64,000 nucleotides of DNA, taken from a virus. The stretch lies in the IMG/VR virus record IMGVR_UViG_3300032053_000013, positions 32,001-96,000 of that record; one strand, written 5' to 3'. The notes under the pieces were generated by a model. The model was given only the letters and a program-made list of their open reading frames with translations, ran no database searches and was not told where the DNA came from. The stretch's first letter is position 1. Every line of letters begins with the position of its first letter. Position numbers and translations under genes: made by a program. Of this stretch, positions 5,848-62,511 are shown one piece after another.

Positions 5848-5854
5848 GGCGCGC

Positions 5855-6424
5855 ATGCCGTATGCGCGTAAGGCCGTGGCGTTCTCCATCAGGATCGCCC
5901 CGAGGGGCAAGTACGAGAAGCTCATCCGGGACCTCGGGAAGGTCGAGAAGATCCTGGAGGGGGAGAGGACGGACGCGGCCCTCCGGGAGCTGGCGACGGC
6001 CGGGAAGGACTTCATCGTCGACGGCATCAAGAACGGGCGGGAGGGCTGGCACCAACTGAACGAGATCACGAAGAGGCTGAAGGGCGGGGGGGACGTCCTG
6101 ATCGACTCCGGCTCGTTCATGGGCGCGATGTCGGTCTGGAAGGAGGGGAAGAGGTGGTTCGGGGGGCTCCCCAGCGGGGTCAAGGGGGACAAGGGGCAGG
6201 ACCTGAACCTCGTGGGCCTGGTGCACGAGTGGGGCGCGACGGTGCCGGTAACGGACGCGATGAGGGGCTTCTTCCTGGCCAACGGGGTCCCGCTCCGGCC
6301 GGAGACGACCCACCTCACCATCCCGCCGAGGCCGTGGTTCGCCCCCGCGGTCGTCGAGCTCCACGCGTTCGCGGGGGAGGTGCTGCGGCCCCTGATCGAC
6401 TCCCTTCTTGAGGAGATAGGGTAG
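5855..6424 (+). CDS. Neck/virion morphogenesis protein (Mu gpG/gp10-like)
   Basis: WHQLNEITKRLKG..VLIDSGSFM, VHEWGA, IPPRPWF motifs. Confidence 0.7.
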   Translation: MPYARKAVAFSIRIAPRGKYEKLIRDLGKVEKILEGERTDAALRELATAGKDFIVDGIKNGREGWHQLNEITKRLKGGGDVLIDSGSFMGAMSVWKEGKRWFGGLPSGVKGDKGQDLNLVGLVHEWGATVPVTDAMRGFFLANGVPLRPETTHLTIPPRPWFAPAVVELHAFAGEVLRPLIDSLLEEIG

Positions 6425-7767
6425 TGCCGGTCCACGTCTACTGCATGAGGGGCGGGGTGGGGACCCCGGCGCCGGTACTCCCGGCGACGGTGTCGAGGGC
6501 CTTCGTCGACCCCGAGGTGGGGACCATGCTGCGCAAGCTGAACCCGGACGAGACGGCCTACGACGCCGGTGGGGCGTACTACGAGGCCGAGGTCTCGTCG
6601 CCCAACCTGGTGGGGGAGAAGATCACGGAGCTGTTCGCCTTCCAGGCGTTCTGGGGCGTGGAGCCCGCCATACCGGGCCTGCCGCCGTCCCAGGCGGCCG
6701 CCGTCGCGTTCCAGGTGTCGAACGACGGCGGGGCCACGTGGCTGGTGTGGCAGGACTCCGTCTCGTCGTGGGTCCCGGCCGCCGGGCCCCTGCTCGGGTT
6801 CTTCAACGACGCCCTCACGGTGGACCGGAGGATCCCCCTGCTCCCGTGGGGGGACCCGCACCAGGTGCGGTTCCGCGTCAGGATGACCCCCGGGGCGGGT
6901 GGGCTCCAGAGGCCGGTGGTGTACGGGCTCGCCCTGTTCAACCGGCACGACATGGACATCTCCGAGGACTGCGCGAGGTCCGTCAAGAGGCACCTCGACG
7001 ACGTCGTCAAGGTGCCCATGTACTACATGGCCGAGCTGGCCGTCCCCTCCGCGACGATAACCATCGAGAGCGGGATCGGGCTCGACGTCAGCGTGCGGGA
7101 GCCCATCAAGGTCTACAACCTCACGGCGGACCCGGCCAGGAACGTCAACCTATTCTCCTCCCTCGGGGGGCCGGACGGGAGGACCATCTCGATGGTGGCC
7201 GTGCAGGCCGGGCCGGTCGAGGTCCAGTTCACCGGGGTGCCGGACGTCTTCATCGGGGCCGAGGAGTTCTTCCAGGTCAGCAAGATGCCGTCGGTGGTGG
7301 TCTTCACGCCGAGCATGTCCCAGTACAACCCCACGAGGCACTGGTGGCCCGAGCCGGAGGTGTCGCAGTCGAGGGGGGTTGGGAGGCTGATGCGCCCCCG
7401 GCAGTTCTACAAGATCGACATGTCCATCCGGGTCCAGTCCTCCCTGAACAGGGAGGCGAGGCAGATGACGGACGCGGTGGTCCGCGTCCTCGACGTGGGG
7501 ATGTACTTCGACTCGGTGGCGAACGGGGAGAGGTACTGCGTATTCGCCCAGGAGAGCAGCGTCAGGGAGGACCGGGTGGCGCAGGGGATCTGGATCGGGG
7601 CCGTGAACATCGTCGTCTTCGGGAAGATGTGGATCGCCGAGGAGGCGGGCGAGGTGGAGACCGTCAGGCAGATCGTGGCCTCGGTGGGGGCCCAGCACAC
7701 TTGCAACTTGCTTTTGCCGGAGCACCTCCGTAGAGTATACCGGGAGAGGATCGAGGTCTCCGAATAG
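6424..7767 (+). CDS. Tail terminator-like protein with N-terminal extra domain
   Basis: C-terminal half resembles sheath terminators (PSVVVF...YKIDMSIRV); lies just upstream of the sheath gene. Confidence 0.45.
   Translation: MPVHVYCMRGGVGTPAPVLPATVSRAFVDPEVGTMLRKLNPDETAYDAGGAYYEAEVSSPNLVGEKITELFAFQAFWGVEPAIPGLPPSQAAAVAFQVSNDGGATWLVWQDSVSSWVPAAGPLLGFFNDALTVDRRIPLLPWGDPHQVRFRVRMTPGAGGLQRPVVYGLALFNRHDMDISEDCARSVKRHLDDVVKVPMYYMAELAVPSATITIESGIGLDVSVREPIKVYNLTADPARNVNLFSSLGGPDGRTISMVAVQAGPVEVQFTGVPDVFIGAEEFFQVSKMPSVVVFTPSMSQYNPTRHWWPEPEVSQSRGVGRLMRPRQFYKIDMSIRVQSSLNREARQMTDAVVRVLDVGMYFDSVANGERYCVFAQESSVREDRVAQGIWIGAVNIVVFGKMWIAEEAGEVETVRQIVASVGAQHTCNLLLPEHLRRVYRERIEVSE
7708..7736 (+). promoter_or_regulatory. 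Promoter-like TTGCTT-N17-TAGAGT
   Basis: AT-rich patch at the end of the 6424 gene, upstream of the sheath operon. Confidence 0.4.
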
Positions 7768-7777
7768 GGGATTTCCA

Positions 7778-7993
7778 ATGCCGGAAGCCCAGAAGAAGCG
7801 GGTCCTCATGAGCATCAGCCGGAGCATGGTCTCGATGGACGCCCCCGGAGGGGGGATCCATTTCATGCCCTCCCAGCGCCTGGAGGTCTCCGAGGCGGAC
7901 TTCGCCAGCCCCCAGGTCCAGAAGCTGCTGCGGTCGAAGTTCCTGGTGGACGTGACCGCGGCCGGGGAGAGGCGGAGGGCCGGGGCGAGGTGA
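7778..7993 (+). CDS. Small hypothetical protein upstream of sheath
   Basis: 71 aa, fills the gap, phage-like codon use. Confidence 0.65.
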   Translation: MPEAQKKRVLMSISRSMVSMDAPGGGIHFMPSQRLEVSEADFASPQVQKLLRSKFLVDVTAAGERRRAGAR

Positions 7994-8060
7994 CCGCCCC
8001 CTGTCCACGGAGTCAGGTCGCCCGAGTGACGGGGCAGAGATCCGATGAAAGGACGGCCAC

Positions 8061-10049
8061 ATGCCTCTTGCCGGAATTGAGACACTGCATCCCGACGTGT
8101 TCGTCATCGAGCAGGCCGGGATCCCGCGCATCGTCGGCGTCAGCGTCAACACGGGCGGGTTCGTCGGGATCACCGAGAAGGGGCCCACGGACAGGGCCGA
8201 CCTCGTCACCAGCACGACCCAGTTCGTCGAGAAGTACGGGGACTACTACCTGGGGTCCCTCCTACGCCCCTCCGTCCAGGCCTTCTTCGACCAGGGCGGC
8301 GCGCGGTGCTTCGTAGCCAGGGTGGTCGGGCAGGGCGCGACCATCGCGGACACGATGCTCGTGAACCACGAGGGCAACGCCGCGATCGACGCGAACGCCA
8401 TCTCCGAGGGCGCGTGGGGGAACAACGTCTCCCTCTCCACGGAGCGGTGGAGGGCGACGATCGCCGCGGCCACGGTCGGATTCGGCTCGACCCAGATCCC
8501 GGTGTCCTCGCTCCGCAACGCGAAGCTCGGCGACCTCGTCCGGGTCTACGACCCTGTGAGCCTGAACGTCGCCTACGCGTTCGTGGTCTCCATCGACGTG
8601 GCGAACCGGTTCCTGAACGTCAGGCCCGTCCAGGGACTCCCCGCCGGGTTCACCTTCCCGGTAGGGAGCCTGGTCCACTGCGCGACCGACCACCGCCTGG
8701 TGACGGCGACCGCCGAGGCCCTGGCGAACGGGGCCACCTCGGTGGTCCTGGCCAACACCGGGAACCTGGCCGTCGGGGCGCGGGTGTACTTCGACGACGG
8801 ATTCAACTACGCGTCGGTCATCGTGGACAGGATCGACGGGAAGCAGATCCGGTTCCAGCCCATTTCCATCACGGCGGGCGCGACTCTCCCCTCGGGGACC
8901 CTCGCGGCCTCGATGGAGTTCAACCTCAAGGTCTACGAGAAGGGGAAGTTCCGCGAGTCCTTCGAGGGGCTCTCGATGGAGAGCACCTGCACGAGGGACT
9001 ACTTCGGCATCCGGCTCGCCGGGCAGTCGAACGAGTCCAAGATGATCTCGGTCGTCGACCTGTTCCCGGCCCTCGCGGACCTGAACATGGCGGTCCCGAT
9101 GCCGGTGGTGAACCAGGGGTTCAACGGGGGGACCGAGGGCGCGGTGGTCACGGACAACGACTACATCGGGTCCGACACGAGCCCGAAGAGCGGGATGTTC
9201 CTGCTCAGCGAGTCGCCGGACCTCAACTTCTTCTCGATCCCCGGCGTGGCGACGGTGGCGGTCTCGAAGGCCGCGGCGGACTGGGCCGACCTCATGCAGA
9301 GGTTCGTGGCGGTCCTCGACGCCCCGCTGGCCTACGACGAGCCGATGGAGGTCATCAACTTCCGCAACATCGAGGCCAACTTCGACACCTCCTACGCCGC
9401 CCTGTACTACCCGTGGGTGATCGTGCGGGACCCGAACAACGCGAACGCCAGGATGGCCCTCCCGCCGTCCGGGTTCGTCCAGGGCGTGTACGCGAACATC
9501 GGGGCGACCAGGGGCGTCCACTACGCCCCCGCCAACGTCGCCCTGCGCGGGGTCCTCGACCTGACCTACAACGTGAGCGACGGGGAGCAGGACCTCCTGA
9601 ACCCCATCGGGATCAACGTCATCCGGTCCTTCCAGGGGGAGGGGATCCGGGTGTGGGGGGCGAGGACGCTGACATCGTACAAGGACGGGCGGCACTACGT
9701 GAACGTCCGGCGCCTCCTGAACTACATCAAGGAGTCGCTCCGCACCGGGCTCCGGTTCGCCATCTTCGAGCTGAACGAGCAGAGGACCTGGCAGACCGTG
9801 GAGCAGGCGGTGTCCGAGTTCCTCGGCTCCATGTTCCAGAGGGGGATGCTCTTCTCCCCGGACGGGACGCCGGACCGGGCGTTCTTCTGCAAGTGCGACT
9901 CCGAGATCAACCCCGACTCCGAGAGGCGCGAGGGGCGCATGAACATCGAGATCGGGGTCAACCCTCCGCTGCCCGCCGAGTTCATCGTCTGCCGGATCGG
10001 CCTCTGGGACGGCGGGAGCACGGTCGAGGAGGAGCTGGCCCGGAGGTAG
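8061..10049 (+). CDS. Contractile tail sheath protein
   Basis: HPDVFVIEQ...GFVGITEKGP N-terminus; YYPW, PPSG.V.G, INVIRSF.G.GIRVWGARTL, YVNVRRL, IFELN C-terminal sheath motifs. Confidence 0.95.
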   Translation: MPLAGIETLHPDVFVIEQAGIPRIVGVSVNTGGFVGITEKGPTDRADLVTSTTQFVEKYGDYYLGSLLRPSVQAFFDQGGARCFVARVVGQGATIADTMLVNHEGNAAIDANAISEGAWGNNVSLSTERWRATIAAATVGFGSTQIPVSSLRNAKLGDLVRVYDPVSLNVAYAFVVSIDVANRFLNVRPVQGLPAGFTFPVGSLVHCATDHRLVTATAEALANGATSVVLANTGNLAVGARVYFDDGFNYASVIVDRIDGKQIRFQPISITAGATLPSGTLAASMEFNLKVYEKGKFRESFEGLSMESTCTRDYFGIRLAGQSNESKMISVVDLFPALADLNMAVPMPVVNQGFNGGTEGAVVTDNDYIGSDTSPKSGMFLLSESPDLNFFSIPGVATVAVSKAAADWADLMQRFVAVLDAPLAYDEPMEVINFRNIEANFDTSYAALYYPWVIVRDPNNANARMALPPSGFVQGVYANIGATRGVHYAPANVALRGVLDLTYNVSDGEQDLLNPIGINVIRSFQGEGIRVWGARTLTSYKDGRHYVNVRRLLNYIKESLRTGLRFAIFELNEQRTWQTVEQAVSEFLGSMFQRGMLFSPDGTPDRAFFCKCDSEINPDSERREGRMNIEIGVNPPLPAEFIVCRIGLWDGGSTVEEELARR

Positions 10050-10052
10050 CAG

Positions 10053-10550
10053 GTGGCCGACAACATCGCCCCCCCTACGAGGCAGCTGAAGCCCCTTGGA
10101 GGGGAGACGGGGCAGGAAGACCCGAGGTTCGGCTTCAGGTACAGCTTCAACGTGCTCACGAGGCCGATCCGGGGGCAGTTCTCGAAGGTGAGTGGGCTCA
10201 GCGAGGAGATCGAGGTCGTGGAGATGCGGGACGGGACCGACCCGTTCCAGGTCAGGAAGATCGCTGGGACGAACCAGGGGGGCCAGATCACGCTGGAGAG
10301 GGGGATCGTTTCCCAGAGGGACCACCTCATCCGGTGGTTCGGGGACGTGAAGAAGAAGAGCGGACAGTACTGGGCGGACGTGACCGTGGGGGTTTGGGGG
10401 CGGCCGGAGGACAAGGATACGGTCATGGACGTGAAGATCAGGTCCGGGTGGCCCAGCAGGTACGAGATCGGCGACCTTGACGCGAAGTCCTCGGAGATAG
10501 CCGTGGAGGTTCTCACGGTCGTCCACGAGGGTCTCGAATACGTGAGGTGA
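10053..10550 (+). CDS. Tail tube protein 1 (T4 gp19-like)
   Basis: FSKVSGLSEEIEVVEMRDG...ITLERGI...WP...LDAKSSEIAVE. Confidence 0.9.
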   Translation: MADNIAPPTRQLKPLGGETGQEDPRFGFRYSFNVLTRPIRGQFSKVSGLSEEIEVVEMRDGTDPFQVRKIAGTNQGGQITLERGIVSQRDHLIRWFGDVKKKSGQYWADVTVGVWGRPEDKDTVMDVKIRSGWPSRYEIGDLDAKSSEIAVEVLTVVHEGLEYVR

Positions 10551-10553
10551 GCA

Positions 10554-11018
10554 ATGGCAGAGACAAGGCTTTCCGACCCCGTCGCCAACTTCCGCTTCAT
10601 CGTGGTCTCGACGCGGTGCCGGGCGGGGTTCTCGAAGGTCACGGGGATGAAGGAGGAGAGCGAGGTCATCGAGTACCGCGAGGGGACGGACAGCGCGTTC
10701 CTCCAGAAGTACCCCGGGATGCGCAAGTACCCGGAGGCGACGTTCGAGCGCGGGCTGACGCAGGAGGCGATGGCCCTCGTCGAGTGGCGGAACGCCGTCA
10801 TCAGGGGGAAGAACTACAAGGACCGCATCCAGGTCGACATCCAGACGTGCCCGGGGACCATGGCCAGGTCCGTCGTCTTCCCGAAGTCGTGGCCGAGCGG
10901 TCTGGAGATCTCGGACATGGACGCGAAGGCGAGCGAGATCGCCATCGAGACCATGACGATCCAGCACGAGGGCAACGAGGACCTGGCGGTCATCCCGACG
11001 ATCTTCAAGAACGTGTAG
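10554..11018 (+). CDS. Tail tube protein 2 (T4 gp19-like)
   Basis: DPVANFRF...GFSKVTGM.EESEVIEYREG...TFERG...WP...MDAKASEIAIE. Confidence 0.9.
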   Translation: MAETRLSDPVANFRFIVVSTRCRAGFSKVTGMKEESEVIEYREGTDSAFLQKYPGMRKYPEATFERGLTQEAMALVEWRNAVIRGKNYKDRIQVDIQTCPGTMARSVVFPKSWPSGLEISDMDAKASEIAIETMTIQHEGNEDLAVIPTIFKNV

Positions 11019-11063
11019 CCTCCCGCCGAGTGGGTCGGCGGGTGAGAACGTGTTTACGGGGCG

Positions 11064-11876
11064 GTGCCCCAGGAGGAAACCATGCCGGAGGACAACCCCA
11101 CCACGCCCGCGCCGGACGCCCCTCCCGTCAACGGCATCGTGGTCAGCCTGCCATGCGGGTACCTCAGGGACGGCCGGGTCCACCGCGAGGCGGAGATCGT
11201 CCCGATGACCGGGCTGACGAGGAAGGCCATCGCGAGGGAGGACGTCAGGAACAACCCCATCAAGGTCACGGACGTCATCCTCTCCCACTGCCTCAAGCGC
11301 GTCGGGGACGCCACCTCGATCACCTCCCGGCTCCTCGGAGACCTCGTCATCGGAGACCGCGACTTCCTGATCCTGGAGATCAGGCGCGTCTCGATGGGCG
11401 AGGCGATCGTCGCGAACGTCGAGTGCGACTCCTGCAAGGCGAAGGTCGAGGTGACGTTCCACATCAAGGAGATCGAGACCATACGGCTGGGGGACCCGAA
11501 GGACTACCCGGAGCGGGACGGCAGCCTCACGTTCGCCGTGAGGGGCGACGGGTTCGAGGCCGTGAGCCGGTTCCCGAAGGGGGCCGACCAGGCCCTCATC
11601 ATGCCGGGGGCGACCAAGAACCCCGTGGCGGCGAGCTACGGGCTGTACGCGGCGTGCCTCCTGGAGTGGAACGGGAAGAGGGGGCCCTTCGACACCGCCT
11701 TCTTCGAGTCGCTCCCGCTCTCCGTCCTCGACGTGTTCGAGGAGGAGTTCATGGCGCTCCAGCCGGGCCCGGTCATGAAGCAGGACGCCTCCTGCCCCTC
11801 GTGCGGGGCGTCCATCGACTTCACGTTCAGAGGGTCGGATTTTTTGTTCCGGGTCCCGAAGCGTGGGAGGCTGTGA
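11064..11876 (+). CDS. Tail assembly chaperone (G-like)
   Basis: VSLPCGY, GDRDFLILEIRRVSMG and CxxC motifs; lies between tube and tape measure genes. Confidence 0.75.
   Translation: MPQEETMPEDNPTTPAPDAPPVNGIVVSLPCGYLRDGRVHREAEIVPMTGLTRKAIAREDVRNNPIKVTDVILSHCLKRVGDATSITSRLLGDLVIGDRDFLILEIRRVSMGEAIVANVECDSCKAKVEVTFHIKEIETIRLGDPKDYPERDGSLTFAVRGDGFEAVSRFPKGADQALIMPGATKNPVAASYGLYAACLLEWNGKRGPFDTAFFESLPLSVLDVFEEEFMALQPGPVMKQDASCPSCGASIDFTFRGSDFLFRVPKRGRL
11840..11846 (+). other. Programmed -1 frameshift slippery site T TTT TTG
   Basis: X XXY YYZ heptamer in frame at the end of the chaperone gene; the -1 frame stays open to 12037. Confidence 0.75.
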
Positions 11877-12037
11877 AAGACCAGGCGTGGCTCATTGTCA
11901 TGACCACGGAGGGCGGGATCACGCTCCGGGACGTGCTGGAGATGGAGGACTCCGAGAGGCTCTCCTGGTACGAGAGGTGCCTCTCCCACAACGAGAGGGT
12001 CCAGTCCGACGTCGAGTCCGCCAAGCGGCGGAGGTAG
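11846..12037 (+). CDS. Frameshift extension (GT-like C-terminal segment)
   Basis: -1 frame reads FVPGPEAWEAVKDQAWLIVMTTEGGITLRDVLEMEDSERLSWYERC..., ending 4 nt before the TMP start. Confidence 0.7.
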   Translation, partial: VPGPEAWEAVKDQAWLIVMTTEGGITLRDVLEMEDSERLSWYERCLSHNERVQSDVESAKRRR

Positions 12038-12040
12038 ACC

Positions 12041-14740
12041 GTGGCTACCGGAGAGACGAGGTCGTTCCTCATCCAGTTCCTGGCCGAGACGGGCGACGCC
12101 GTAACGGCGATGAACTTCCTCGGCCGCTCCATGCAGAAGTTCCCCTCCCAGGCGATCAACGCCGCCGCCCAGACCGAGGTCGCGATGGCTGAGGTCGACA
12201 CGGCGCTCAGGCAGGCCGGGGTCTCGGCCTCCCACCTCTCCGACGCGTTCACCTCCATGGGACGCGACGCCACAGCCATGCTCAAGGCCGCCGGGGCCGC
12301 CGCCAAGATAGGGTTCGAGGGCGAGGACAACCTCAAGGCCTTCGCCGAGACGGCGCGCAGGTTCGGGTTCGTCACGAAGACGAGCACGGAGCAGGCCGGG
12401 CAGGCCCTCTCTGACCTCGGCGTCGCCATGGGGTACAAGACGCCGGAGCAGATCGAGAGGCTGGCGTCGGGGATGACCGAGCTGTCCAGGCGGACCAACG
12501 TCACCTACGACGACCTCACCGCGCTGATGAAGCGGACCGGCCCCCTGTCCAACGCGATCGGGGTGTCGGAGTCGGCGGTCATGGCCCTGGCCGCCTCCTT
12601 CTCCCAGCAGAACATGTCGGCCAAGGCGGCGGCCGGGCCGATCAGCAACCTGATGGAGATGATGCAGTATTCGGCGCTCAGCGGGCACCAGCTCGGGAAG
12701 GCCGTGGGGCTGTCGGGGGACAAGTTCGACGAGTTTGCGAAGGCGATACCGGACAAGCAGATCGAGATGTTCATGGGCCAGATCGGGAAGATGGGGAAGA
12801 TCCAGGCCGAGCAGACCCTCCACGGGCTCGGGATCGCCTCGGGGCTCTCGGCGACCCAGATATGGCTGGCGGCGAAGCAGACGCAGAACTTCACGAAGTA
12901 CATCGGGTGGGCCTCCGAGGGGATGAAGAAGAACACGGCCCTGAAGAGGGAGGCCTACAAGGTCGAGAGGACCCTGACGTTCCAGATGAAGGAGCTGGGG
13001 AAGCAGTCCCTGGCGTTCCTCCAGATGACGGGGAAGATGCTGGTCCCCGTCGTGAGGGTGTTCGTGCAGGCGCTCCGGGGCCTCCTCTTCGTGCTCATGG
13101 TGATCCCGAGGCCGGTGCTGGCGCTCGCGGCGGCCTTCGCGGCCCTCGGGGCGGCCATCCTGGCGGGGACGTGGGCGGCGAAGACGAAGCTGGTCGCCGG
13201 GTCGGTCACGCTCATCGCGACCATCTACAGGGAGATAGCGGCGGTCGGGGGGCTCGCGGGGGCCTACAAGGTCCTCACCTCGGCGCAGGCTGCCCAGGCG
13301 CTGGTACAGGCAGCCGCGGACAGGAGGAGAACTATAGCGGGCCTGAAAGAGGCGAAGCTGCCGCTGCCCACTAAGTCGGTGGGGATGGGGTTCGGGGTGG
13401 CGGGGGCCCCGACCGGGGCGATGGGGGCCATGGTCACCGTGTCCGCCGCCCTCGGGATCTCCGTGGCGGCCCTCATCGGGATCGTCCTCGCTCTGGTCGC
13501 GGTGTTCATCCTCATGGGGGTGATGATCTACAAGGGCGTGAAGATGATGCAGGAGGGGACGGCCAAGGCCAAGGTGTTCGGGGCCGCGCTCCTCCTGATG
13601 ACGGGGCCCATCGGCCTGTTCGTGCTCGGGATGATGGCGCTCGCGAAGCCGATCCGGGACTTCAAGGACCAGGTCGTGGCGGCGTTCGAGCCCATCATCC
13701 CCATCCTGGAGCAGATCGCGCCCCTCCTGTACGCCATCGGGGCGGCACTCGCGGTGGTGATGCTCATAATGAGCCCGATCACCTATGCCATCCTGTTCAT
13801 CCTCGGGTTCATCTACGCGATCATGCCGATCATCGTCGGGTTCATCGAGGGGTTCGCCGAGGTCCTCGCGTTCGCGATCGAGCCGTTCCTGCCGGGGCTG
13901 AAGGCCCTCGGGGACCTGTTCGAGTGGGTCGGGGAGAAGATCGGTATGACGGGGGTCTCCGCGGGCTGGCTGACGACCCTGCTGAAGATCGTGGGGAAGA
14001 CCATCGTGTACTCGATCATCGGCCCGTTCGCCCTGGCGGTCAGGTTCATCGCGGTCATATTCGACGGGATCAGGGCGTACGTGGACGACTTCTGGGGGTC
14101 TATCAGCCTGCTCGGCGAGGCGATCGAGATGGTCTGGGAGGGGGTGGTCGCCGCCTTCCAATGGGCCGTCGGCAAGATGGTGGCGGCGTTCGCGTGGGTC
14201 CTGTCCCCCATCGTCAAGATCAAGGTCTTCTTCACCTCCATGATCGGGGCGATGGTGGCCGGGATAGCGAGGATCGTGGGGCCGCTCAAGGCGGTCGCCG
14301 GGTTCTTCTACTCCATCTACCAGGCCGCGAGCAGCGTCAAGACGGCCCTGGTCGGGTCCTCGCCGTGGCACGTCGAGGAGAGCATGGGCGGGGAGGTGAT
14401 CCCGGCCCTCGAGAGGACGCGCGGGGCGTTCGACGACGTAGCCGAGGCCTCGTTCGGGGCGACGCCCCAGGTGGCCCGCGTGAGGGAAGGGGCGGAGGGG
14501 GCGAGGGCGGCGGCCTCGGTGGCCGCGGCGTCGGCGATGCGGGTCCCGGCCCAGGCGCCCCAGGCGCCCCAGGCGGCGGGCGGGGGGGCGAGGGAGGTCC
14601 GGGTCTCGATCCCCGTGGTCGTCCAGCTCGACGGGGTGACCCTCGGTAGGACGGTGATAGAGCAGATCATCGAGCTCAACGAGCGAAACATGAACCCGCC
14701 GGGCTTCCCCATGAGGGGGGTGGAGCCCGCCTTCGGTTAG
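12041..14740 (+). CDS. Tape measure protein
   Basis: 899 aa, Ala-rich helical, TP901/PhageMin_Tail-like N-terminal region, hydrophobic TM-like segments, 11-residue W/F periodicity. Confidence 0.9.
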   Translation: MATGETRSFLIQFLAETGDAVTAMNFLGRSMQKFPSQAINAAAQTEVAMAEVDTALRQAGVSASHLSDAFTSMGRDATAMLKAAGAAAKIGFEGEDNLKAFAETARRFGFVTKTSTEQAGQALSDLGVAMGYKTPEQIERLASGMTELSRRTNVTYDDLTALMKRTGPLSNAIGVSESAVMALAASFSQQNMSAKAAAGPISNLMEMMQYSALSGHQLGKAVGLSGDKFDEFAKAIPDKQIEMFMGQIGKMGKIQAEQTLHGLGIASGLSATQIWLAAKQTQNFTKYIGWASEGMKKNTALKREAYKVERTLTFQMKELGKQSLAFLQMTGKMLVPVVRVFVQALRGLLFVLMVIPRPVLALAAAFAALGAAILAGTWAAKTKLVAGSVTLIATIYREIAAVGGLAGAYKVLTSAQAAQALVQAAADRRRTIAGLKEAKLPLPTKSVGMGFGVAGAPTGAMGAMVTVSAALGISVAALIGIVLALVAVFILMGVMIYKGVKMMQEGTAKAKVFGAALLLMTGPIGLFVLGMMALAKPIRDFKDQVVAAFEPIIPILEQIAPLLYAIGAALAVVMLIMSPITYAILFILGFIYAIMPIIVGFIEGFAEVLAFAIEPFLPGLKALGDLFEWVGEKIGMTGVSAGWLTTLLKIVGKTIVYSIIGPFALAVRFIAVIFDGIRAYVDDFWGSISLLGEAIEMVWEGVVAAFQWAVGKMVAAFAWVLSPIVKIKVFFTSMIGAMVAGIARIVGPLKAVAGFFYSIYQAASSVKTALVGSSPWHVEESMGGEVIPALERTRGAFDDVAEASFGATPQVARVREGAEGARAAASVAAASAMRVPAQAPQAPQAAGGGAREVRVSIPVVVQLDGVTLGRTVIEQIIELNERNMNPPGFPMRGVEPAFG

Positions 14741-14756
14741 CGCATACGGTATGCGC
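14740..14756. promoter_or_regulatory. 17-bp palindrome GCGCATA-CGG-TATGCGC
   Basis: Identical copy at 61933-61949; variants at 5851-5867 and 33631-33647. Confidence 0.6.
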
Positions 14757-14767
14757 GGGAGAGGGGC

Positions 14768-15355: not shown

Positions 15356-15365
15356 GGGCGGAGGG

Positions 15366-16936: not shown

Positions 16937-16946
16937 GAGGTGTGGG

Positions 16947-17228: not shown

Positions 17229-17385
17229 GTGGTCCTGAGGTTCGTCGTCGCCGTCGCCCTCGTCGAGGCCGTGGTGGAGATCACGTCCACGGCGGAAGTG
17301 TTCGAGGGCGTCCGGGCATGGCTGGCGGGCAGGGGAGAAAAGCCCCGGAAACTGGGGATTTTCGCCCGGTGTGGCTACTGCCAAA
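17229..17385 (+). pseudogene. 5' fragment of a DUF1360-like membrane protein gene, interrupted by endonuclease cassette
   Basis: VALVEAVVEI...FEGVRAWLAGRGEKPRKLGIFARCGYC closely matches the N-terminus of 18186-18596. Confidence 0.7.
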
Positions 17386-17392
17386 AAAGTCC

Positions 17393-17421: not shown

Positions 17422-17427
17422 GGGGAC

Positions 17428-33630: not shown

Positions 33631-33647
33631 GCGCACACGGTGTGCGC
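33631..33647. promoter_or_regulatory. Palindrome variant GCGCACA-CGG-TGTGCGC
   Basis: Intergenic; symmetric substitutions relative to the 14740 site. Confidence 0.55.
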
Positions 33648-52941: not shown

Positions 52942-52947
52942 AATCGC

Positions 52948-55704: not shown

Positions 55705-56282
55705 AGATCGGGGATGTAGTCATCCTGAAGGGGAAGGTGGTAGAGAAGGAATGTGGCTCCATCTCATCGAAGGGGGATCACCTCACCCTCATCGAGGGGA
55801 AGGCCGACATCGGAGGATGCGTACTGGCGAAGGACTGGCGGGGGGAGGTTCACTGCATCAATCCGGACCTTTTCGAGGTGGTATGGACCCGCGAGGAGGA
55901 AGTCGCCAGGAAGATGATGGATCCGGAGCCCGTGCAGTTCAAGCCGGTGAGCCTCCCGGAGATCGAGCAACGGCTCCTACAGTCCATGGCCCAGATGGTG
56001 TCTGTCAATCTCGACAAGGAGATCACCGCCGACTGGAAGTGGGTGGAGGGAAAGATGAACGCGAGCAGGCATGAGCCGCCGCCGAGGCCGGGGGAGAAGA
56101 GGGTCCTCGACCTCGTCCTCGCCGACCTCAGGGCGCGGGCGGAGGCGGGGAAGATCAAGTACGGGACGTACCTCATGACGCGGAACGGGAGGGACGCCCT
56201 GATGGACGCGTACCAGGAGGCGCTGGACCTTGTCATGTACCTCCGCCAGGAGCTCGAGGAGAAGGAGGAGAGGCGTGGGTGA
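55701..56282 (+). CDS. Hypothetical N-terminal domain fused to MazG-like nucleotide pyrophosphohydrolase-type domain
   Basis: C-terminal G..KYGTYLM..NGRDALMDAYQEALDLVMYL; internal SD plus in-frame ATG at 56055. Confidence 0.55.
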   Translation: MKIGDVVILKGKVVEKECGSISSKGDHLTLIEGKADIGGCVLAKDWRGEVHCINPDLFEVVWTREEEVARKMMDPEPVQFKPVSLPEIEQRLLQSMAQMVSVNLDKEITADWKWVEGKMNASRHEPPPRPGEKRVLDLVLADLRARAEAGKIKYGTYLMTRNGRDALMDAYQEALDLVMYLRQELEEKEERRG

Positions 56283-56514
56283 GAAGAAGGTCTGCCCGAG
56301 GTGCGGGAAGGAGTTTGTCGAGGGGCGCGAGGAGTACATGGACCCGACGAAGCACGGGTGGCCGGTGCCGACGGGCCAGAAGAGCGCGGACGGCTTCGAC
56401 GTCTGGAGGGTCCTCCTCTGCGCCGACGCGACGCCGGAGCAGGTCGCGGAGTACAGGGCCGTCAAGACGGACCAGTCCCTGGGGATCAGGTCCGTGGGAT
56501 TCGGGAAGAACTGA
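56275..56514 (+). CDS. Small hypothetical protein (CPRC)
   Basis: GTG start after AGGAGAGG. Confidence 0.55.
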   Translation: MGEKKVCPRCGKEFVEGREEYMDPTKHGWPVPTGQKSADGFDVWRVLLCADATPEQVAEYRAVKTDQSLGIRSVGFGKN

Positions 56515-56726
56515 TGGTGGAAATGATCAGAAGGCGGACAACCATCGACCTCGCCATCTACACGTTCCAGGAGACGGAGGGGTCGTTCTGCCCCTGCGGG
56601 GGGAAGGCGCACCTCCTGGCGCCGAGGGAGCCGGACCGCGACGCGCCCATCTTCTACCTCTGCGCGAAGTGCGGACGGATCGCCCAGGCGGGCGTCGGAG
56701 AGGTGTCGCCTCAGGAGGATCGATGA
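56514..56726 (+). CDS. Small Zn-ribbon protein
   Basis: CPCG and CAKC; coupled at both ends. Confidence 0.55.
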   Translation: MVEMIRRRTTIDLAIYTFQETEGSFCPCGGKAHLLAPREPDRDAPIFYLCAKCGRIAQAGVGEVSPQEDR

Positions 56727-58894
56727 TGGAGACGGAGTACGTCAGGTCGCTGCGGGTGGACTGGAAGGCGGAGCCGCCGGTCGGATCCCCGACGGTCGTG
56801 AGCACCTTCGCCGGGTGCGGGGGGAGCTCGCTCGGGTACCGGATGGCCGGGTTCCGGGAGCTGCTCGCCGTCGACTTCGAGGAGAACGCCGTGGCGACGT
56901 TCGCCAGGAACTTCCCGGGGGTCCCGGTCTGGCAGCGGGACATCACGAAGGTCACGGCGGAGGAGGTCCTGTCCTTCTGCAAGATCGGGAAGGGGGACCT
57001 GGACGTGTTCGACGGCAGCCCGCCGTGCTTCCCGGCCGGGACGGATGTGTGGACGGCGCGTGGGAAGGTGCCGATAGAAGGGGTTGAGATAGGGGATCTT
57101 GTGCTTACGCATAGGGGTCGGTACAGGAGGGTGGTCGGGAGGACGAAGAGGATAGCGGGAGGGCTGAGAAGGCTGGTAATCAAGTATGGTCGGGAGGATA
57201 TTGTTTGCACCGAGGGGCACCCTTTGTATGTGAGGAGGAGGGCGGGTCCGAGAGTGAGGAGTTACTCCGCGCCCGAGTGGGCCGCGGCGAAGGAGATTAG
57301 GCCGGGCGATGTTGTTCTGGAGCCGCATGTCGCGGAGGTCCCCGATCTGGTCGTGCCGGATGTGGTAACAAGGCAGAGGATCAACGTGGAGGGGCAGAGC
57401 GGGTCCGACCGGAGCGAGATGCGGCTGCTGTCGAGGCCGTGTTCCTTGGATTGGAAATCCTCTGAGTTTGCATGGGTTCTGGGGTTCTACGTGGCCGAGG
57501 GGCATCGCCGGGGCCGAGAGCCGACGTTTGTTGATGGGGGGCCATATCGGCGCGAGGTGGTGTTCTCGGTTGCGGATAAGGAAGCGGCTCCGCTTTCCGT
57601 GAGGCTGTCGGGGATGGGCCTCCATGCCTGCGTCCAGAGGCACAGCCAGGGATCGTCGAGGGTGTCGGTGAGCGACCTGGACCTGTGGTCTCTTGTGGGG
57701 GTTGTGGGGGAGGGCGCGGGGGGCAAGAGGATACCGGCGGCGTTCCATGCCCAGCCGGAGGAGTGGCAGAAGGCTTTCCTGGACGGGTACTTCGAGGGGG
57801 ATGGGTGCCTGAAAAGGAACGGGAAGGCAGGGGTCGTCAGGAAGGCGACCACGGTGTCGAGGGACCTCGCGGAGGGCGTGGCCAGGATGGTCGCCAGGGC
57901 GTTCGGAGTGGTGGCGTCGATTGATGTTCTTTATCCCGCGGGTGTAGGTAGCATCCAAGGCAGAAGTGTGATGGTAAGGGAGGCGTATTCGGTCGGCTAT
58001 AGCCTTCCGGGATCGAGGAAGCCGAGGCCAGGGTTTGTCGATGAGGCTGGGGCGTGGCTGCCCGTCGTGAGTAATGAGGAAGAGGATCGGGCTGCGGAGG
58101 ACGTCTACAACCTGGAGGTGGAGGAGGACGAGTCGTACGTGGCTGGAGGACTGGCGGTCCATAACTGCCAGGGCTTCTCGATGAGCGGGTCGAGGAAGGT
58201 GAGCGACCCGAGGAACAGCCTGTTCATGGAGTTCGCGCGGCTCATCGAGGGGCTGGGGCCGAGGGTCTTCCTCATGGAGAACGTGGCCGGGCAGGTGCGC
58301 GGCAAGATGCGGGGGGCCTTCATCGAGATCATGAGGGTGCTGAAGGGGACGGGGTACGCGGTGAAGTGCGCGCTGCTCAACGCGGCGCACTACGGGGTTC
58401 CGCAGCACAGGGAGAGGATGATCTACATCGGGGTGAGGCCCGACGTCGGGGCGGAGCCGTCGTTCCCCAGGCCGTCGGCGAGGGTGGTGACGTGCGGCGA
58501 GGCCATCGGGGACCTGGAGGGGTTCGACGACGGGGTGAAGATGCCGGGGTTCTCGAAGAGCCCGAGGGCGAGCAGGATGCTTAGCCAGATCCGGGAGGGG
58601 CAGCATGGGCTGGACGCCGACGCCAAGGGCGGGTACTTCAACACCGCGAGGATCGACAGGCTGAGGGTCGCTCCCACCATCCTCAAGACGAGCAGCCCCG
58701 CGTCGGGCCTGGTCCACTACGACGGGAGCAGGTGGCTCACCATCGCGGAGGCGAAGAGGATCGCGTCCTTCCCCGACGACTTCGAGCTCATCGGGAGCTA
58801 CCAGCACAGGTGGGCGAGGATCGGGAACGCGGTCATGCCCATGTTCATGCGGGCGCTGGCGTCCCACGTCAGGAAGGAGATCCTGGGGAGATGA
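56723..58894 (+). CDS. C5 cytosine DNA methyltransferase precursor containing an intein
   Basis: STFAGCGG (motif I), GSPP|CQGFS (motif IV split by intein), MENV (VI), GVPQHRER (VIII), IGNAV (X). Confidence 0.95.
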   Translation: MMETEYVRSLRVDWKAEPPVGSPTVVSTFAGCGGSSLGYRMAGFRELLAVDFEENAVATFARNFPGVPVWQRDITKVTAEEVLSFCKIGKGDLDVFDGSPPCFPAGTDVWTARGKVPIEGVEIGDLVLTHRGRYRRVVGRTKRIAGGLRRLVIKYGREDIVCTEGHPLYVRRRAGPRVRSYSAPEWAAAKEIRPGDVVLEPHVAEVPDLVVPDVVTRQRINVEGQSGSDRSEMRLLSRPCSLDWKSSEFAWVLGFYVAEGHRRGREPTFVDGGPYRREVVFSVADKEAAPLSVRLSGMGLHACVQRHSQGSSRVSVSDLDLWSLVGVVGEGAGGKRIPAAFHAQPEEWQKAFLDGYFEGDGCLKRNGKAGVVRKATTVSRDLAEGVARMVARAFGVVASIDVLYPAGVGSIQGRSVMVREAYSVGYSLPGSRKPRPGFVDEAGAWLPVVSNEEEDRAAEDVYNLEVEEDESYVAGGLAVHNCQGFSMSGSRKVSDPRNSLFMEFARLIEGLGPRVFLMENVAGQVRGKMRGAFIEIMRVLKGTGYAVKCALLNAAHYGVPQHRERMIYIGVRPDVGAEPSFPRPSARVVTCGEAIGDLEGFDDGVKMPGFSKSPRASRMLSQIREGQHGLDADAKGGYFNTARIDRLRVAPTILKTSSPASGLVHYDGSRWLTIAEAKRIASFPDDFELIGSYQHRWARIGNAVMPMFMRALASHVRKEILGR
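57026..58165 (+). mobile_element. Intein with LAGLIDADG endonuclease (380 aa)
   Basis: Starts CFPAGTDV, ends VYNLEV...YVAGGLAVHN followed by Cys +1; LGFYVAEG and FLDGYFEGDG motifs; distinct codon use. Confidence 0.95.
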
Positions 58895-59376
58895 GCAAGG
58901 CGAAGCTGGAGGTCGTCTACGTCGACGCGTCGGCCCTGAGGCCGAACGGGTGGAACCCGAACGAGATGGACGCCGGGATGCTCGACAGGCTCATGCGCGA
59001 GGTCGAGCGGGTCGGGTTCGTCCAGCCCGTGGCGGCGATGAGGGACGGCACGATCATCGACGGGGAGCATCGCTGGGTGCTCGCCAGGGACAAGGGGTGG
59101 AAGGTGCCCGTCGTGTACCTGGACGTCGACGAGAGGACGGCGAAGACCCTCTGCGTGAACATGAACGCGATCCGCGGGGAGAACGACCCGGCCAGGCTCG
59201 TCGCCCTGGTGGAGTCGCTCGGGATGCCGGGGAGGGAGATGGAGAGGGTCCTCGGGATCACGTCGGGGGACATGGACGCGCTGCGGGCCGCCCTGGAGGC
59301 GCCCGACATCAGGGAGTTCGACGAGAACATCGAGACGAGGCACGCGTGCCCGAGGTGCGGATATAAATGGTCATGA
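58891..59376 (+). CDS. ParB N-terminal-like protein 1
   Basis: LRPNGWNPNEM...VGFVQP...IIDGEHRW; C-terminal CPRC. Confidence 0.88.
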   Translation: MSKAKLEVVYVDASALRPNGWNPNEMDAGMLDRLMREVERVGFVQPVAAMRDGTIIDGEHRWVLARDKGWKVPVVYLDVDERTAKTLCVNMNAIRGENDPARLVALVESLGMPGREMERVLGITSGDMDALRAALEAPDIREFDENIETRHACPRCGYKWS

Positions 59377-59978
59377 CGCCTGGCGGAAAGATCGAGATCG
59401 AGGTGGTCCCGATAGGGAGCGTGAGGCCGAACGAGTGGAACCCCAACGTCCTCCCGTCGAGGAGGTACGCCCACCTCCGAAAGGAGCTGGTCCGCGTCGG
59501 GTTCGCGGCGCCGCTCGTGGTGTCGCGGGACGGGACCATCATCAACGGCGAGCACAGGTGGAGGGCGGCCGGGGAGGAGGGGTTCTCCGAGGTCCCGGTC
59601 GTCAGGCTCGACGTCGACGAGGCCACGGCGAAGACGATCTCCCTCAACCTCAACTCGATCCACGGGGAGTTCGACAAGGCCAGGCTGGCGATGCTCGTGG
59701 CCGGGCTGGAGATCGACATCCCGAAGGACGATCTGCTGGAGATCCTCGACTACACGGACAGGGAGATGGCGGCCCTCATGGACCCTCCCCCGCCGAAGGA
59801 CAAGGCCGGGGGCGGGGGGGCGGGCGAGGAGTGCGAGTGCCCGAGGTGCGGGCACCGGTTCGTCGAGGGGCAGGACTCGGGCGTGGACATCGACGGGGGA
59901 GGCGGGGATGGACACGGTGGCGCCGGAGGTGCGGTCGAGGATCATGGCCCGAATCAGGGGGAGGGGCACGGGGCCTGA
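59367..59978 (+). CDS. ParB N-terminal-like protein 2
   Basis: VRPNEWNPNVL...IINGEHRWRAA; C-terminal CPRCGH. Confidence 0.88.
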   Translation: MVMTPGGKIEIEVVPIGSVRPNEWNPNVLPSRRYAHLRKELVRVGFAAPLVVSRDGTIINGEHRWRAAGEEGFSEVPVVRLDVDEATAKTISLNLNSIHGEFDKARLAMLVAGLEIDIPKDDLLEILDYTDREMAALMDPPPPKDKAGGGGAGEECECPRCGHRFVEGQDSGVDIDGGGGDGHGGAGGAVEDHGPNQGEGHGA

Positions 59979-60318
59979 GAGGGCCCTGGCCGCCGCGCTG
60001 GGCGGGTCGGGCCTGGAGTTCACGGCGAACGACGGGTCGCTCCCCGGCAGCCCCGACCTGGCCTTCGCCGGGGCGAGGCTCGCCGTGTTCGTCAACGGGT
60101 GCTTCTGGCACGGGTGCCCGAGGCACTACCGTCTGCCTAAGTCCAACGTCGAGTTCTGGGAGAGGAAGGTCCGGGGGAACCGGAGGAGGGACGCGAGGGC
60201 GAGGCGGGCCCTCAACCGGGCGGGGTGGTCGGTCATGGTCGTGTGGGAGCACGACGTGAGGTCGGACCCGGAGCGGGCGGCCGCGAGGGTCGCCGGGAGG
60301 GCGGCGCGGTGCGCGTGA
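59908..60318 (+). CDS. vsr: Very-short-patch repair endonuclease
   Basis: RSRIMARIRGRGTGPE, LPGSPDL, FVNGCFWHGC, FWERK..N..RD, VWEHD. Confidence 0.93.
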   Translation: MDTVAPEVRSRIMARIRGRGTGPERALAAALGGSGLEFTANDGSLPGSPDLAFAGARLAVFVNGCFWHGCPRHYRLPKSNVEFWERKVRGNRRRDARARRALNRAGWSVMVVWEHDVRSDPERAAARVAGRAARCA

Positions 60319-60754: not shown

Positions 60755-60767
60755 GACATTTTAGCCG

Positions 60768-60795
60768 TTGACCCGAATGGCGGGCGGCGTATAAT
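60768..60795 (+). promoter_or_regulatory. Promoter TTGACC-N16-TATAAT (6)
   Basis: Read directly from sequence. Confidence 0.8.
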
Positions 60796-60801
60796 TATCG
60801 T

Positions 60802-61099
60802 GTTCACCTATTGCCCCGATGGGGCCGACGCCCCATAATATAGATGTCATGGCCGCTGGCAACGGCCCAGAGCAGGGGGAAAGGAACAGGGAAGTGGGGA
60901 CGAGGAAGACCAGCACCGAAAAACCGGTGTCGGATTGCCACCCGATTCCGGGGGGGCGAAGCGGGGAACTTCCCCACTACCCGCCCTGCGTAGCCCCCGA
61001 AACAAACAACCAGGCCGCGACTCGAAAGAGGGCGCGGCCTGTTCTATCTGCTGGAAGTGCCAAGAAGAGCCGTCGGCGCATGGGCGTCGGCGGCTTTTT
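60802..61099 (+). ncRNA. Candidate structured RNA or attenuated leader (~300 nt)
   Basis: Bounded by a promoter and a terminator; several GC-rich hairpins including a GAAA tetraloop; no convincing ORF. Confidence 0.5.
61068..61099 (+). terminator. Intrinsic terminator upstream of the replication gene
   Basis: AGCCGTCGGCGC-ATGG-GCGTCGGCGGCT followed by TTTT. Confidence 0.75.
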
Positions 61100-61209
61100 C
61101 GTTTCTCCGCCCCAACCGAGTGACGGGGAGGGGATGGAGCGTGACGGCGTGGGGGAATTGCCGGTCCGTTTCCCTGGAGCGAGTCAGGGGGACGGGGAGG
61201 GACTTTTCT

Positions 61210-62511
61210 ATGGCGCCGAGGTGTGACGTTGGCGAGAACAACCTCGCCATGAAGCGACGGCTCCTGGAGATGGGGTGGGACCAGATCCCGCGGTTCCTGA
61301 TGCGGATGAGGGAGATCGGGCCGTCGGACAAGCTGGTCTTCGCCTTCATCCTGAACCGGATCCGAGACTTCGGCAACGGGAGGGCGTTCCCGTCCATCAT
61401 GACGATAGCCATGAACAACGCGCTGTCGATCCCGACGGTGAAGAGGAGCACGGCGGCGCTCGTCAAGATCGGGCTCCTGGTCAGGCACAGGAGGGGGCTC
61501 GGCAAGACGAACGAGTACGGGCTGCCGGACGAGATCCCCCCGTGGATCCTGGAGGCGTACGGCGGAGACCTCCGGTCCCAGAGAGATCAAAAAGACACCT
61601 CTGATAGATCAAAAAGATCTCCCGTGGGGGTCAAATTGAACCGTAGAAAGAGAGTGGTGGAAGTAGAGGGGGATGAAGGAGACCCTACGGGGGCGGGCTG
61701 CCGCCCGCCAGACGGTTCCGGGGCTCAACCGGGAAGGAAGACGGGTGAGTGGAAGGGTGCCAAGGCTGATGCACATGGCGGCGAGCCCAGGAGCCCCCAG
61801 GACGATTCCGGGGGAGGGGGCGCCCTTCCGCCTGCTGAGGAGGGTAAACGCGCCCAGGAGGGCTGGGCAGGGGCCTCCCCGTTCGTCCTGGACGGACCTC
61901 TCCCGGATGGGGGGGGAGGCGGGGTCCCGCCCGCGCATACGGTATGCGCCGGGGGGAGCCGGAAGGTGATGCCGTGGGAGAGGGAGGAGGATGCGGCGGG
62001 AGGGGGGAAGAGGAAGAAGCCGAGGAAGAAGGGGATGTACGACCCGGAAAAGCCGGTCTCGGAGTGGACCGGGAACGACCTGGTCGGGTACTTCCGGGAG
62101 ATGTTCAAGCGGGCCTGGCCGGGGGAGGGGGCCCCGGACGTCAGAATCGAGGACCTGGGGGCGGCGAAGCGCCGGATCGTCTGGATGAGGGACGAGGGCA
62201 TGGACATCGGGCTGGCGAAGAGGGCGGTGGACCACCTCTTCGCGAACTGGGGGGACGGGCTCCCCGGCAGGCTCCGGTGGAAGGGGTCGAGGCCCGGCAT
62301 CGCCATCGTCGAGAACGCGAGGCTCTTCGAGATGCTGGTCAGGGAGGCCCAGAACGGGGTGGCCACCGGGAAGACGGCGGACGAGTGGAAGGGGGACAGC
62401 GCCGAGGTCGAGAGGTACCAGAGGCGCGAGGAGATAAGGGCGAGGATGATCGATGAGGGTAGCACGCTGGAGCAGGCGGACCGTGAGTCCCGCCGACTGG
62501 CAGGCCTCTAA
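61210..62511 (+). CDS. Replication initiator with N-terminal winged HTH
   Basis: DKLVFAFI...AFPSIMTIA...LSIPTVKRS..AL..IGLL..HRR...TNEY; lies upstream of a DnaC-like gene. Confidence 0.8.
   Translation: MAPRCDVGENNLAMKRRLLEMGWDQIPRFLMRMREIGPSDKLVFAFILNRIRDFGNGRAFPSIMTIAMNNALSIPTVKRSTAALVKIGLLVRHRRGLGKTNEYGLPDEIPPWILEAYGGDLRSQRDQKDTSDRSKRSPVGVKLNRRKRVVEVEGDEGDPTGAGCRPPDGSGAQPGRKTGEWKGAKADAHGGEPRSPQDDSGGGGALPPAEEGKRAQEGWAGASPFVLDGPLPDGGGGGVPPAHTVCAGGSRKVMPWEREEDAAGGGKRKKPRKKGMYDPEKPVSEWTGNDLVGYFREMFKRAWPGEGAPDVRIEDLGAAKRRIVWMRDEGMDIGLAKRAVDHLFANWGDGLPGRLRWKGSRPGIAIVENARLFEMLVREAQNGVATGKTADEWKGDSAEVERYQRREEIRARMIDEGSTLEQADRESRRLAGL
61584..61639. repeat. Iteron-like repeats, 22-bp period (candidate origin)
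   Basis: AGATCAAAAAGA at 61584 and 61606, GGGTCAAATTGA at 61628, inside the initiator gene. Confidence 0.6.

Follow-up and report, generated by a model that had tools for sequence, protein, structure and literature searches.

A dispersed 17-bp palindrome in a large sheath-bearing phage as a candidate docking site for a co-evolving dimeric protein

What reads a 17-base-pair (bp) palindrome that recurs at a handful of dispersed places in a large phage genome, and is it read on duplex DNA or on the transcript? The question is raised by a 64,000-nucleotide (nt) stretch of viral DNA (hereafter the window), which comprises bases 32001 to 96000 of a 122,285-bp IMG/VR viral contig (the source contig, G000). 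We found that the palindrome occurs far beyond chance, lies at gene junctions, is conserved at syntenic places in related phages and varies at one symmetric base pair in concert within each genome. To judge from these comparisons, the palindrome is a genuine cis element that is conserved and co-evolves, and it belongs to a kind already known but unexplained. The explanation that we prefer, and to which we give about an even chance, is that the palindromes are docking sites on duplex DNA for a dimeric, two-fold symmetric, sequence-specific protein that co-evolves with them.

Abundance, form and placement of the palindrome

A sequence-only reading of the window had reported four copies of the palindrome (sites B to E; Table 1), and both their positions and their sequences proved exact. 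Specifically, the window holds 8 strand-matches at three or fewer mismatches, compared with a mean of 0.05 in 100 dinucleotide-preserving shuffles, none of which (0 of 100) reached 8. The whole source contig contains six sites, including two beyond the window (A and F), both of them perfect. Four of these six copies are identical, the core arms are invariant and the 7-mer half-site never occurs outside full sites, while no flanking sequence shared among the sites was found. The shuffle comparison, together with the restriction of the half-site to full sites, rules out chance occurrence.

The phage is metagenome-derived and sheath-bearing, with a genome of ~150+ kb; the source contig is 66% G+C, with essentially every gene on the plus strand. 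Its capsid protein finds its best match among cultured phages in the Streptomyces BE-cluster phages (37% identity), and megablast and blastn searches against cultured phages found nothing. Related contigs were recovered from IMG/VR by protein-guided searches; all contigs are incomplete. Two of them, G005 (109 kb) and G004 (41.8 kb), appear to be pieces of a single sister genome of ~150+ kb because they come from one sample, do not overlap and are each colinear with G000 at ~78% nucleotide identity, G005 being circularly permuted relative to G000. Most of a promoter-dense early stretch of ~43 kb (G005 36–79 kb) is missing from G000, whose true genome must therefore exceed 122 kb. A search of IMG/VR for the exact 17-mer returned only two single, unrelated matches, a metagenome scan added no close relative among the matches listed, and the C-terminal domain of the replication initiator, used as a query, recovered no loci.

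Using the core CGCA-n-AC-n-GT-n-TGCG, with positions 6, 9 and 12 left free and at most one mismatch allowed elsewhere, we collected 31 sites from nine contigs, a count from which two likely chance matches had been removed. Positions 2–5, 7–8, 10–11 and 13–16 are almost invariant, partly by ascertainment, as the collection pattern fixed those positions; the flanking proteins are only 45–90% identical. Because positions 1 and 17 often mismatch, the core is effectively 15 bp long. Complementarity between C8 and G10 holds in 27 of the 31 sites, although the two bases could not pair in a 3-nt loop, and the element is therefore a true 17-bp palindrome with 8-bp arms and a single central base. This corrects the sequence-only reading, which had described 7-bp arms around a 3-nt spacer. 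The central base is the least constrained position (G in 24 sites, C in 4, A in 2 and T in 1), and the mismatches of imperfect sites show no enrichment for G-U. Positions 6 and 12, despite being left free in the search, are complementary in 31 of 31 sites, forming a T-A pair in 6, C-G in 11 and A-T in 14.

Next to genes, the placement is tight. Sites A, B, C and D begin 2, 4, 0 and 4 nt past the last base of a stop codon and end 8–19 nt ahead of the next start, with a Shine-Dalgarno sequence in the gap; for four of six sites to fall within 0–5 nt after a stop has a probability of ~4e-8, as computed on a crude gene map based on G+C content at third codon positions (GC3). The gene downstream of site B is tail-completion/Neck1-like. 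This copy had been read as lying over a start codon, but homologues align from the GTG at 5876 and the ATG within the motif is probably not a start. At site C, the next gene starts 11 nt downstream, preceded by a Shine-Dalgarno sequence, and site D stands between the stop of a 205-amino-acid (aa) virion-protein gene and, 19 nt further on, the ATG of an 854-aa gene. About one third of the sites are intragenic. Among these, site E lies in the low-complexity linker of the replication initiator, between an N-terminal winged-helix domain, which matches HTH_36 and PHROG replication-initiation families, and a conserved C-terminal domain; a DnaC/IstB-like loader gene comes next. Sites occur throughout the genome, for which reason we found nothing specific in the proposal that they link the late operons to the replication gene.

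Table 1. Palindrome sites and ParB_N proteins of the source contig (window coordinates unless marked as genome coordinates)
Feature	Position	Description
Site A	genome 16658 (outside window)	Perfect copy; 2 nt past stop codon
Site B	5851..5867	ATG/TAT arms, central C; between the stop of a 147-aa gene and a GTG (5876) 8 nt downstream
Site C	14740..14756	Perfect; first G is the final base of the TAG stop of the tape-measure gene
Site D	33631..33647	Perfect palindrome; sole C-G type in G000
Site E	61933..61949	Perfect; inside the replication-initiator open reading frame (ORF; 61057-62511, 484 aa); encodes AHTVCA
Site F	genome 112443 (outside window)	Perfect; within the final 12 codons of a gene for a Cas4/RecE-like exonuclease
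ParB_N proteins	genome 7803-8381; window 58891-59376; window 59367-59978	161-203 aa; zinc ribbons, no helix-turn-helix (HTH)

Concerted variation and turnover among related phages

All six sites of the source contig (6/6) are found at orthologous places in the sister genome (G005 has A, E and F, and G004 has the other three), and the sister carries five extra copies, for a total of 11 in ~151 kb. More distant contigs keep subsets of the sites (D and E in G001, C and D in G002, B and C in G006, and C in G007). The motif scan that the sequence-only reading had suggested as a check gave a frequency far above chance and conservation at syntenic places in related phages. In G008, G009 and Logan contig L228, the B and C copies are absent, and stop and start codons overlap as TGATG at both junctions. 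These three contigs carry instead a copy within codons PGANGLQ of the gene lying between B and C, of which 16 of 17 bases are identical, compared with only ~62% identity over the surrounding 120 codons. Retention of the intragenic copy where the B and C copies are absent argues that what counts is having a site somewhere in the region, more than having one between two given cistrons. The motif was not found in five more distant relatives, G003 (82 kb), G010 (112 kb), G011, G012 and G014 (106 kb), except for a single match in G010, and these five contigs showed no other over-represented palindrome. At such junctions the stop and start codons of these relatives overlap; in G003, genes abut or overlap at junctions B and C (TGATG at B), and junction D has a promoter-like TTGGAA-16-TATAAT.

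The identity of the 6/12 pair is specific to the genome. The source contig has five T-A sites and one C-G site (D), the sister genome (G004 and G005) has ten C-G sites and one decayed T-A copy, and G001, G002 and G006 to G009 have A-T at 14 of 14 sites. The same can be followed site by site: B is of a perfect C-G type in G004 and of an outer-degenerate A-T type in G006; C is of C-G type in G004 and of A-T type in G002, G006 and G007; and D is of C-G type in G004 and of A-T type in G001 and G002. The central base, too, flips between orthologs, being G at site E in G000 and C in G005.

Two of the sites bear on how such changes came about. At site E, the source contig differs from the C-G-type copy of G005 at three positions (6, 9 and 12), all of them synonymous third-codon positions of the encoded peptide AHTVCA, and in G001 the copy is of A-T type with the peptide altered to PQTLCA. 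As the aligned copies in G000 and G005 read, site E is a case of conversion in place without protein change. At site F, the ortholog within the exonuclease codons of G005 is still of T-A type and has two further mismatches (the decayed copy), while a perfect C-G copy stands 50 nt downstream of it, in a new spacer; here, conversion of type in place would alter two residues of the exonuclease tail. Taken together, the conversion at E and the replacement at F show, on this reading of the alignments, selection on the type itself. Concerted, type-specific change of this kind at unlinked sites points to a trans-acting reader that discriminates the 6/12 pair.

Several other features were seen near the sites or in the regions compared. 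Directly 3′ of the site-D operon lies an ORF of ~1933–1943 aa (36242–42073) for which searches of Pfam, PHROGs, PDB sequences and the ESM Atlas came back empty. In G004, an insertion of ~780 bp (~30494–31277 in coding-strand orientation; orthologous to window ~33700) interrupts the 854-aa gene below D after ~25 codons; with its own promoter-like sequence and a target duplication of ~62 bp, it looks like a homing-endonuclease-type cassette. The initiator ORF (61057–62511) is modular: its N-terminal winged-helix domain cannot be aligned among three related phages, but its linker and C-terminal domain show 40–58% identity. GC3 drops in the linker (61600–61920), where a different frame contains a 98-codon ORF whose stop overlaps an internal ATG at 61969 as TGATG; the arrangement is conserved in G001 and G005 and could represent an internal start or a second product. 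Upstream of the initiator, positions 56279–60318 encode a C5-cytosine methylase split by a LAGLIDADG-domain intein, then two ParB_N/zinc-ribbon proteins, then a Vsr mismatch endonuclease, a block that is wholly missing from G001 between conserved neighbours. In contig L216 (8182–9733, corresponding to G005 ~68.2–69.7 kb and missing from G000), small early proteins that are Cys-rich, zinc-ribbon-like and paralogous to one another are encoded in tandem; one palindrome (G005 68992) lies between two of them, and the next gene has a 12-base partial copy at the 5′ end of its coding sequence. Finally, a stretch outside the window that lacks high-GC3 ORFs has three copies of a second palindrome, CGGACC-N4-GGTCCG, ~0.9–1 kb apart (genome 20813, 21704 and 22727).

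Proposed docking on duplex DNA weighed against other explanations

Neither promoters nor terminators account for the palindrome. The source contig has 11 strong sigma-70-type promoters of the form TTGACG-16-TATAAT, all in early regions outside the structural module, and none of the 11 adjoins a site; among the 22 such promoters of G005, one has a site, at about +1 to +17. These counts exclude a sigma-70 promoter or classical operator, and a −10-like reading of the central TACGGT is broken by the C-G type, the A-T type and site B. The genuine intrinsic terminators of this phage, after the capsid gene and elsewhere, consist of stems of at least 9 bp followed by T runs. The palindromes are unlike them, and a terminator scan of positions 1–20,000 did not pick up the two sites located there. 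Downstream of most sites the sequence is a purine-rich Shine-Dalgarno sequence, and Rfam returned no match for the element. Two other signals were seen in this survey. Early promoters form a family with a conserved GAAA-rich spacer (first bases of the −35 in the window at 46920, 47353, 48867, 51242, 52914 and 60768). TAGGAT in the context gTAGGATkg is present in eight copies on the plus strand and a single one on the minus strand (e.g., window 4024–4029 and 42340–42345; genome 7645 and 30270, outside the window). Four copies lie in late intergenic gaps, 25–160 nt upstream of genes, one of them just past the terminator of the capsid gene, and the word is a possible late promoter element that lacks a −35 and is separate from the palindrome.

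The sequence-only reading had offered either a protein operator or a hairpin signal. Its protein-site option gained from the invariance of the arms, the C8/G10 pair, the concerted 6/12 pair and the intragenic third of the sites, whereas an operator in the usual sense did not, none of the 11 promoters having a site beside it. In the docking model, the central base pair would go unread, and each subunit of the dimer would recognise the 8-bp half-site to one side of it, which comprises CGCA-n-AC and an outer base that is read only loosely. This protein would probably be encoded by the phage and co-evolve with its sites, and once bound it would most likely act genome-wide and not at promoters, possibly as a roadblock or insulator between gene blocks, or possibly as a loading or anchoring point for a DNA-organising protein. 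We infer all three components of this model, namely the protein on duplex DNA, its phage origin and its action once bound. Duplex DNA is favoured because the arm sequence is conserved well beyond the needs of pairing, because the complementarity of C8 and G10 would be unusable in a triloop, because variability is highest at the centre, which also flips between orthologs, because intragenic sites are conserved while position is flexible at a regional scale, and because imperfect sites lack a G-U bias. In addition, local RNA folds at the sites are no more stable than those of shuffles (z from +0.27 to −1.65), even though the hairpin is present in every minimum-energy fold.

Several points weigh against this model. 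No cognate reader was found among the candidates in G000 and its relatives, just as none had been evident to the sequence-only reading. Cro/cI-type HTH proteins (HTH_3) gave no match in G000, G005, G004 and G001. The ParB_N proteins (Table 1) do not follow the motif, as g103 and g104 are absent from motif-bearing G001 while the g18 type is present in motif-less G003. The initiator at ~61210, which the sequence-only reading had named among candidate HTH proteins, is an unlikely reader because its N-terminal DNA-binding domain is not conserved between motif-sharing genomes: it is unalignable among G000, G005 and G001, whose motifs differ at one symmetric position. The remaining points concern the strand and the transcript. 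By hand count, the central G falls on the coding strand in ~13 of 16 orthologous groups (p ~0.05 given the G excess of the strand), which hints at strand-specific reading. Most sites begin immediately after a stop codon, the single arm mismatch of the source contig (site B) is a G-U wobble on the sense strand and short T runs follow some sites, all of which would fit an RNA element, and the symmetric changes at 6/12 are equally expected for a hairpin. Tight spacing from the stop codon would, however, also follow from simple compaction, as the ribosome-binding site needs room on the 3′ side of the spacer. Further candidates were set aside as readers. The 201-aa g43 protein (genome 29640–30245) is present in G005, G008 and G009 and absent from the five motif-less contigs, a correlation that we take to be spurious because unrelated phages also encode homologues, at loci in which no such palindrome is seen. 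Nor did a lead come from a DksA/TraR-like protein, a Topo-type zinc-ribbon protein or the other conserved small proteins.

The strand and transcript features listed above would fit an RNA hairpin signal, that is, a 6–7-bp stem with a 3-nt loop in sense polycistronic transcripts, read by a sequence-specific factor for processing, stabilisation, attenuation or translational uncoupling of cistrons. We regard such a signal as rather unlikely but as a serious competitor, in view of what it accounts for: all genes lie on the strand that carries the hairpin, four of six sites start 0–4 nt after a stop and end 8–19 nt before the next start, every minimum-energy fold contains the stem, the 6/12 pair takes three Watson-Crick forms with 0 mismatches in 31 sites, and the sense-strand wobble at B, the preference for G at the sense-strand centre and the T runs (e.g., after site B in G004 and site A in G005) all agree with it. 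What it leaves unexplained is a stem sequence kept far beyond pairing needs around a loop whose centre varies most and flips at orthologous sites, and a conserved complementary C8/G10 pair that is useless in a triloop. Processing at the conserved sites within ORFs (E in mid-gene, and the PGANGLQ copy) would cut a coding region. Moreover, folding energies are unexceptional, canonical long-stem, T-tailed terminators exist elsewhere in the same phage, and Rfam holds no counterpart. A hairpin or cruciform extruded on single-stranded DNA, serving as an N4-type promoter, a priming signal or an HUH-type nicking signal, seems improbable. Its format, a stem no longer than 7 bp with conserved bases and a loop of 3 nt, and its few copies per genome, just upstream of genes, do match the promoters of the N4 virion polymerase (PMC4496689), and the late region is without a sigma-70-type promoter. 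Yet the T7/N4-type polymerase domain (PF00940) was not detected in G000, G005, G004 and G001, a weak negative, as no control genome gave a match and the contigs were incomplete; the 1933-aa neighbour gene matched nothing in Pfam, PHROGs, PDB sequences or the Atlas; and gTAGGATkg, a separate late-promoter-like motif, stands at four late intergenic sites. N4 requires a purine at the loop centre of the template strand, where the palindromes mostly have C, and intragenic copies would make no sense as promoters.

The remaining explanations are weaker still. A target for a nuclease, nickase or modification enzyme, with arms that begin GCGC, would provide fixed nick or cleavage points or methylation-dependent marks. 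Fixed points of this kind are found in T5-like phages. The window encodes an intein-containing C5 methylase, two ParB_N/zinc-ribbon proteins and Vsr at 56279–60318, only a handful of dispersed sites occur per genome, and the T-A and C-G types are related by C-to-T transitions on both strands, which could be the signature of 5-methylcytosine deamination. We nevertheless consider this improbable, and marginally more so than an extruded hairpin: G001 keeps the motif without the methylase/ParB_N/Vsr block, seventeen conserved base pairs far exceed a methylase site, and the A-T type needs transversions. Very little probability attaches to an origin-type iteron bound by the initiator, with site E as the origin (cf. 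lambda O/ori) and the other copies secondary or titrating. Site E does lie in the linker that joins the DNA-binding domain of an O-like initiator to its C-terminal domain, before the DnaC/IstB-like loader, and is conserved in the same place in G005 and G001, but it is a single copy with very GC-rich flanks and without neighbouring repeats, half-sites or an AT-rich stretch, and the DNA-binding domain has been swapped (it cannot be aligned among G000, G005 and G001) with a difference of only one symmetric position in the motif. We hold it equally doubtful that the palindrome is a functionless, selfish element or recombination linker, spread by insertion and kept at gene boundaries where it is least harmful. 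Its presence or absence at junctions does resemble a clean insertion of ~25–30 bp between genes that overlap (TGATG) in relatives, and G005 has one site at the edge of a replaced segment and two copies within or beside an insertion of ~230 bp. On the other side, sites A, B and C lie inside uninterrupted alignment blocks, other copies lie in codons without insertion, and no flanking sequence is shared. The sites of a genome also switch type together, and a decayed copy was replaced by one of the new type, both of which call for selection by a reader. A role as a mosaic boundary was likewise rejected, as the break in DNA homology at E lies ~100 codons upstream at the protein level and A, B and C are inside continuous blocks.

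Relation to known dispersed repeats and significance

The closest parallel is a 17-bp dyad repeat, TGTTCGG-N3-CCGAACA, of the Cluster O mycobacteriophages (Corndog and relatives), which is present in 34 copies in the ~70-kb genome of Corndog; its function is unexplained, and a dimeric DNA-binding protein was predicted by its authors (PMC4351075). In both systems, 7-bp inverted repeats flank 3 bp, the arms do not vary within a genome, and copies are dispersed over the whole genome, with about two thirds at gene junctions, about one third in ORFs and most away from promoters; the phages concerned are not evidently temperate and encode ParB-domain proteins thought irrelevant to the repeat (PMC4351075). 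In contrast, the repeat sequences and the phages themselves are unrelated, so that by sequence our palindrome family is best described as an analogue, not a homologue, of the Cluster O repeat. It is also about tenfold sparser (6 sites in 122 kb here and 11 in the sister, versus 34 in ~70 kb), its outer "spacer" bases are conserved and complementary, and it shows genome-specific symmetric variants and turnover, which the five near-identical Cluster O genomes could not.

The stoperators of Cluster A phages, bound by an L5/Bxb1-type repressor, are likewise short repeats at intergenic gaps genome-wide and off promoters, and they co-evolve with a phage protein, giving variants per related phage that recall the genome-specific variants described here; the bound protein blocks elongating polymerase (PMC9283540, PMC6550527). 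However, stoperators are asymmetric 13–14-bp sequences read by a monomer in one orientation (PMC9283540, PMC6550527), whereas the present element is a palindrome with a flipping centre. They also belong to temperate phages whose immunity repressor binds early promoters as well, while the incomplete contigs G000, G005, G004 and G001 gave no match to tyrosine integrases (Phage_integrase) or Cro/cI-type HTH proteins, and 0 of 11 early promoters of G000 had a site. ParB-like systems such as KorB of plasmid RK2 use a handful to a dozen dispersed copies of a 13–16-bp palindrome, within or between genes, and the reader is a dimer able to act at a distance from parS/OB (PMC11790492). Such a system needs a ParB that combines a CTPase N-domain with an HTH, and only zinc-ribbon ParB_N proteins, whose distribution does not follow the motif, were found here. 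The hairpin promoters of the N4 virion RNA polymerase resemble the palindrome in having a stem of at most 7 bp, a loop of 3 nt, stem contacts that are sequence-specific and a small number of copies just upstream of genes, but they comprise three promoters at one genome end served by a giant virion polymerase (PMC4496689), unlike the copies seen here in all modules and inside genes. Origin iterons of the lambda type are several adjacent repeats by an AT-rich region, unlike a single copy with GC-rich flanks. Repetitive extragenic palindromic (REP) elements are imperfect palindromes with a conserved GTAG-type head, mobilised by RAYT (Y1) transposases; no Y1 transposase was among the Pfam matches listed, and the palindromes have no conserved flank.

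Dispersed dyad repeats have been known in phage genomes since the Cluster O study, and to our knowledge neither reader nor purpose is known in any lytic phage. Without its reader protein, the present case is one more well-documented example and not a new principle. The family is nevertheless a favourable one in which to solve the problem, having few sites and three natural specificity types that differ at one symmetric position, along with orthologous sites converted in place, one site replaced instead, and close relatives without the system. A broader proposal, which we put forward as speculative and think unlikely in its full form, is that a virulent phage of ~150+ kb, in which neither a repressor nor an entire ParB can be recognised, keeps its chromosome organised or insulated by means of palindromic docking sites in a sparse array, with one site about every 15 kb. 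The array would be read by a new class of dimeric DNA-binding protein whose specificity has switched at least twice (among T-A, C-G and A-T at the same half-site position) with every site in the genome following, and it would constitute a phage "chromosome address" system distinct from both stoperators and ParB/parS.

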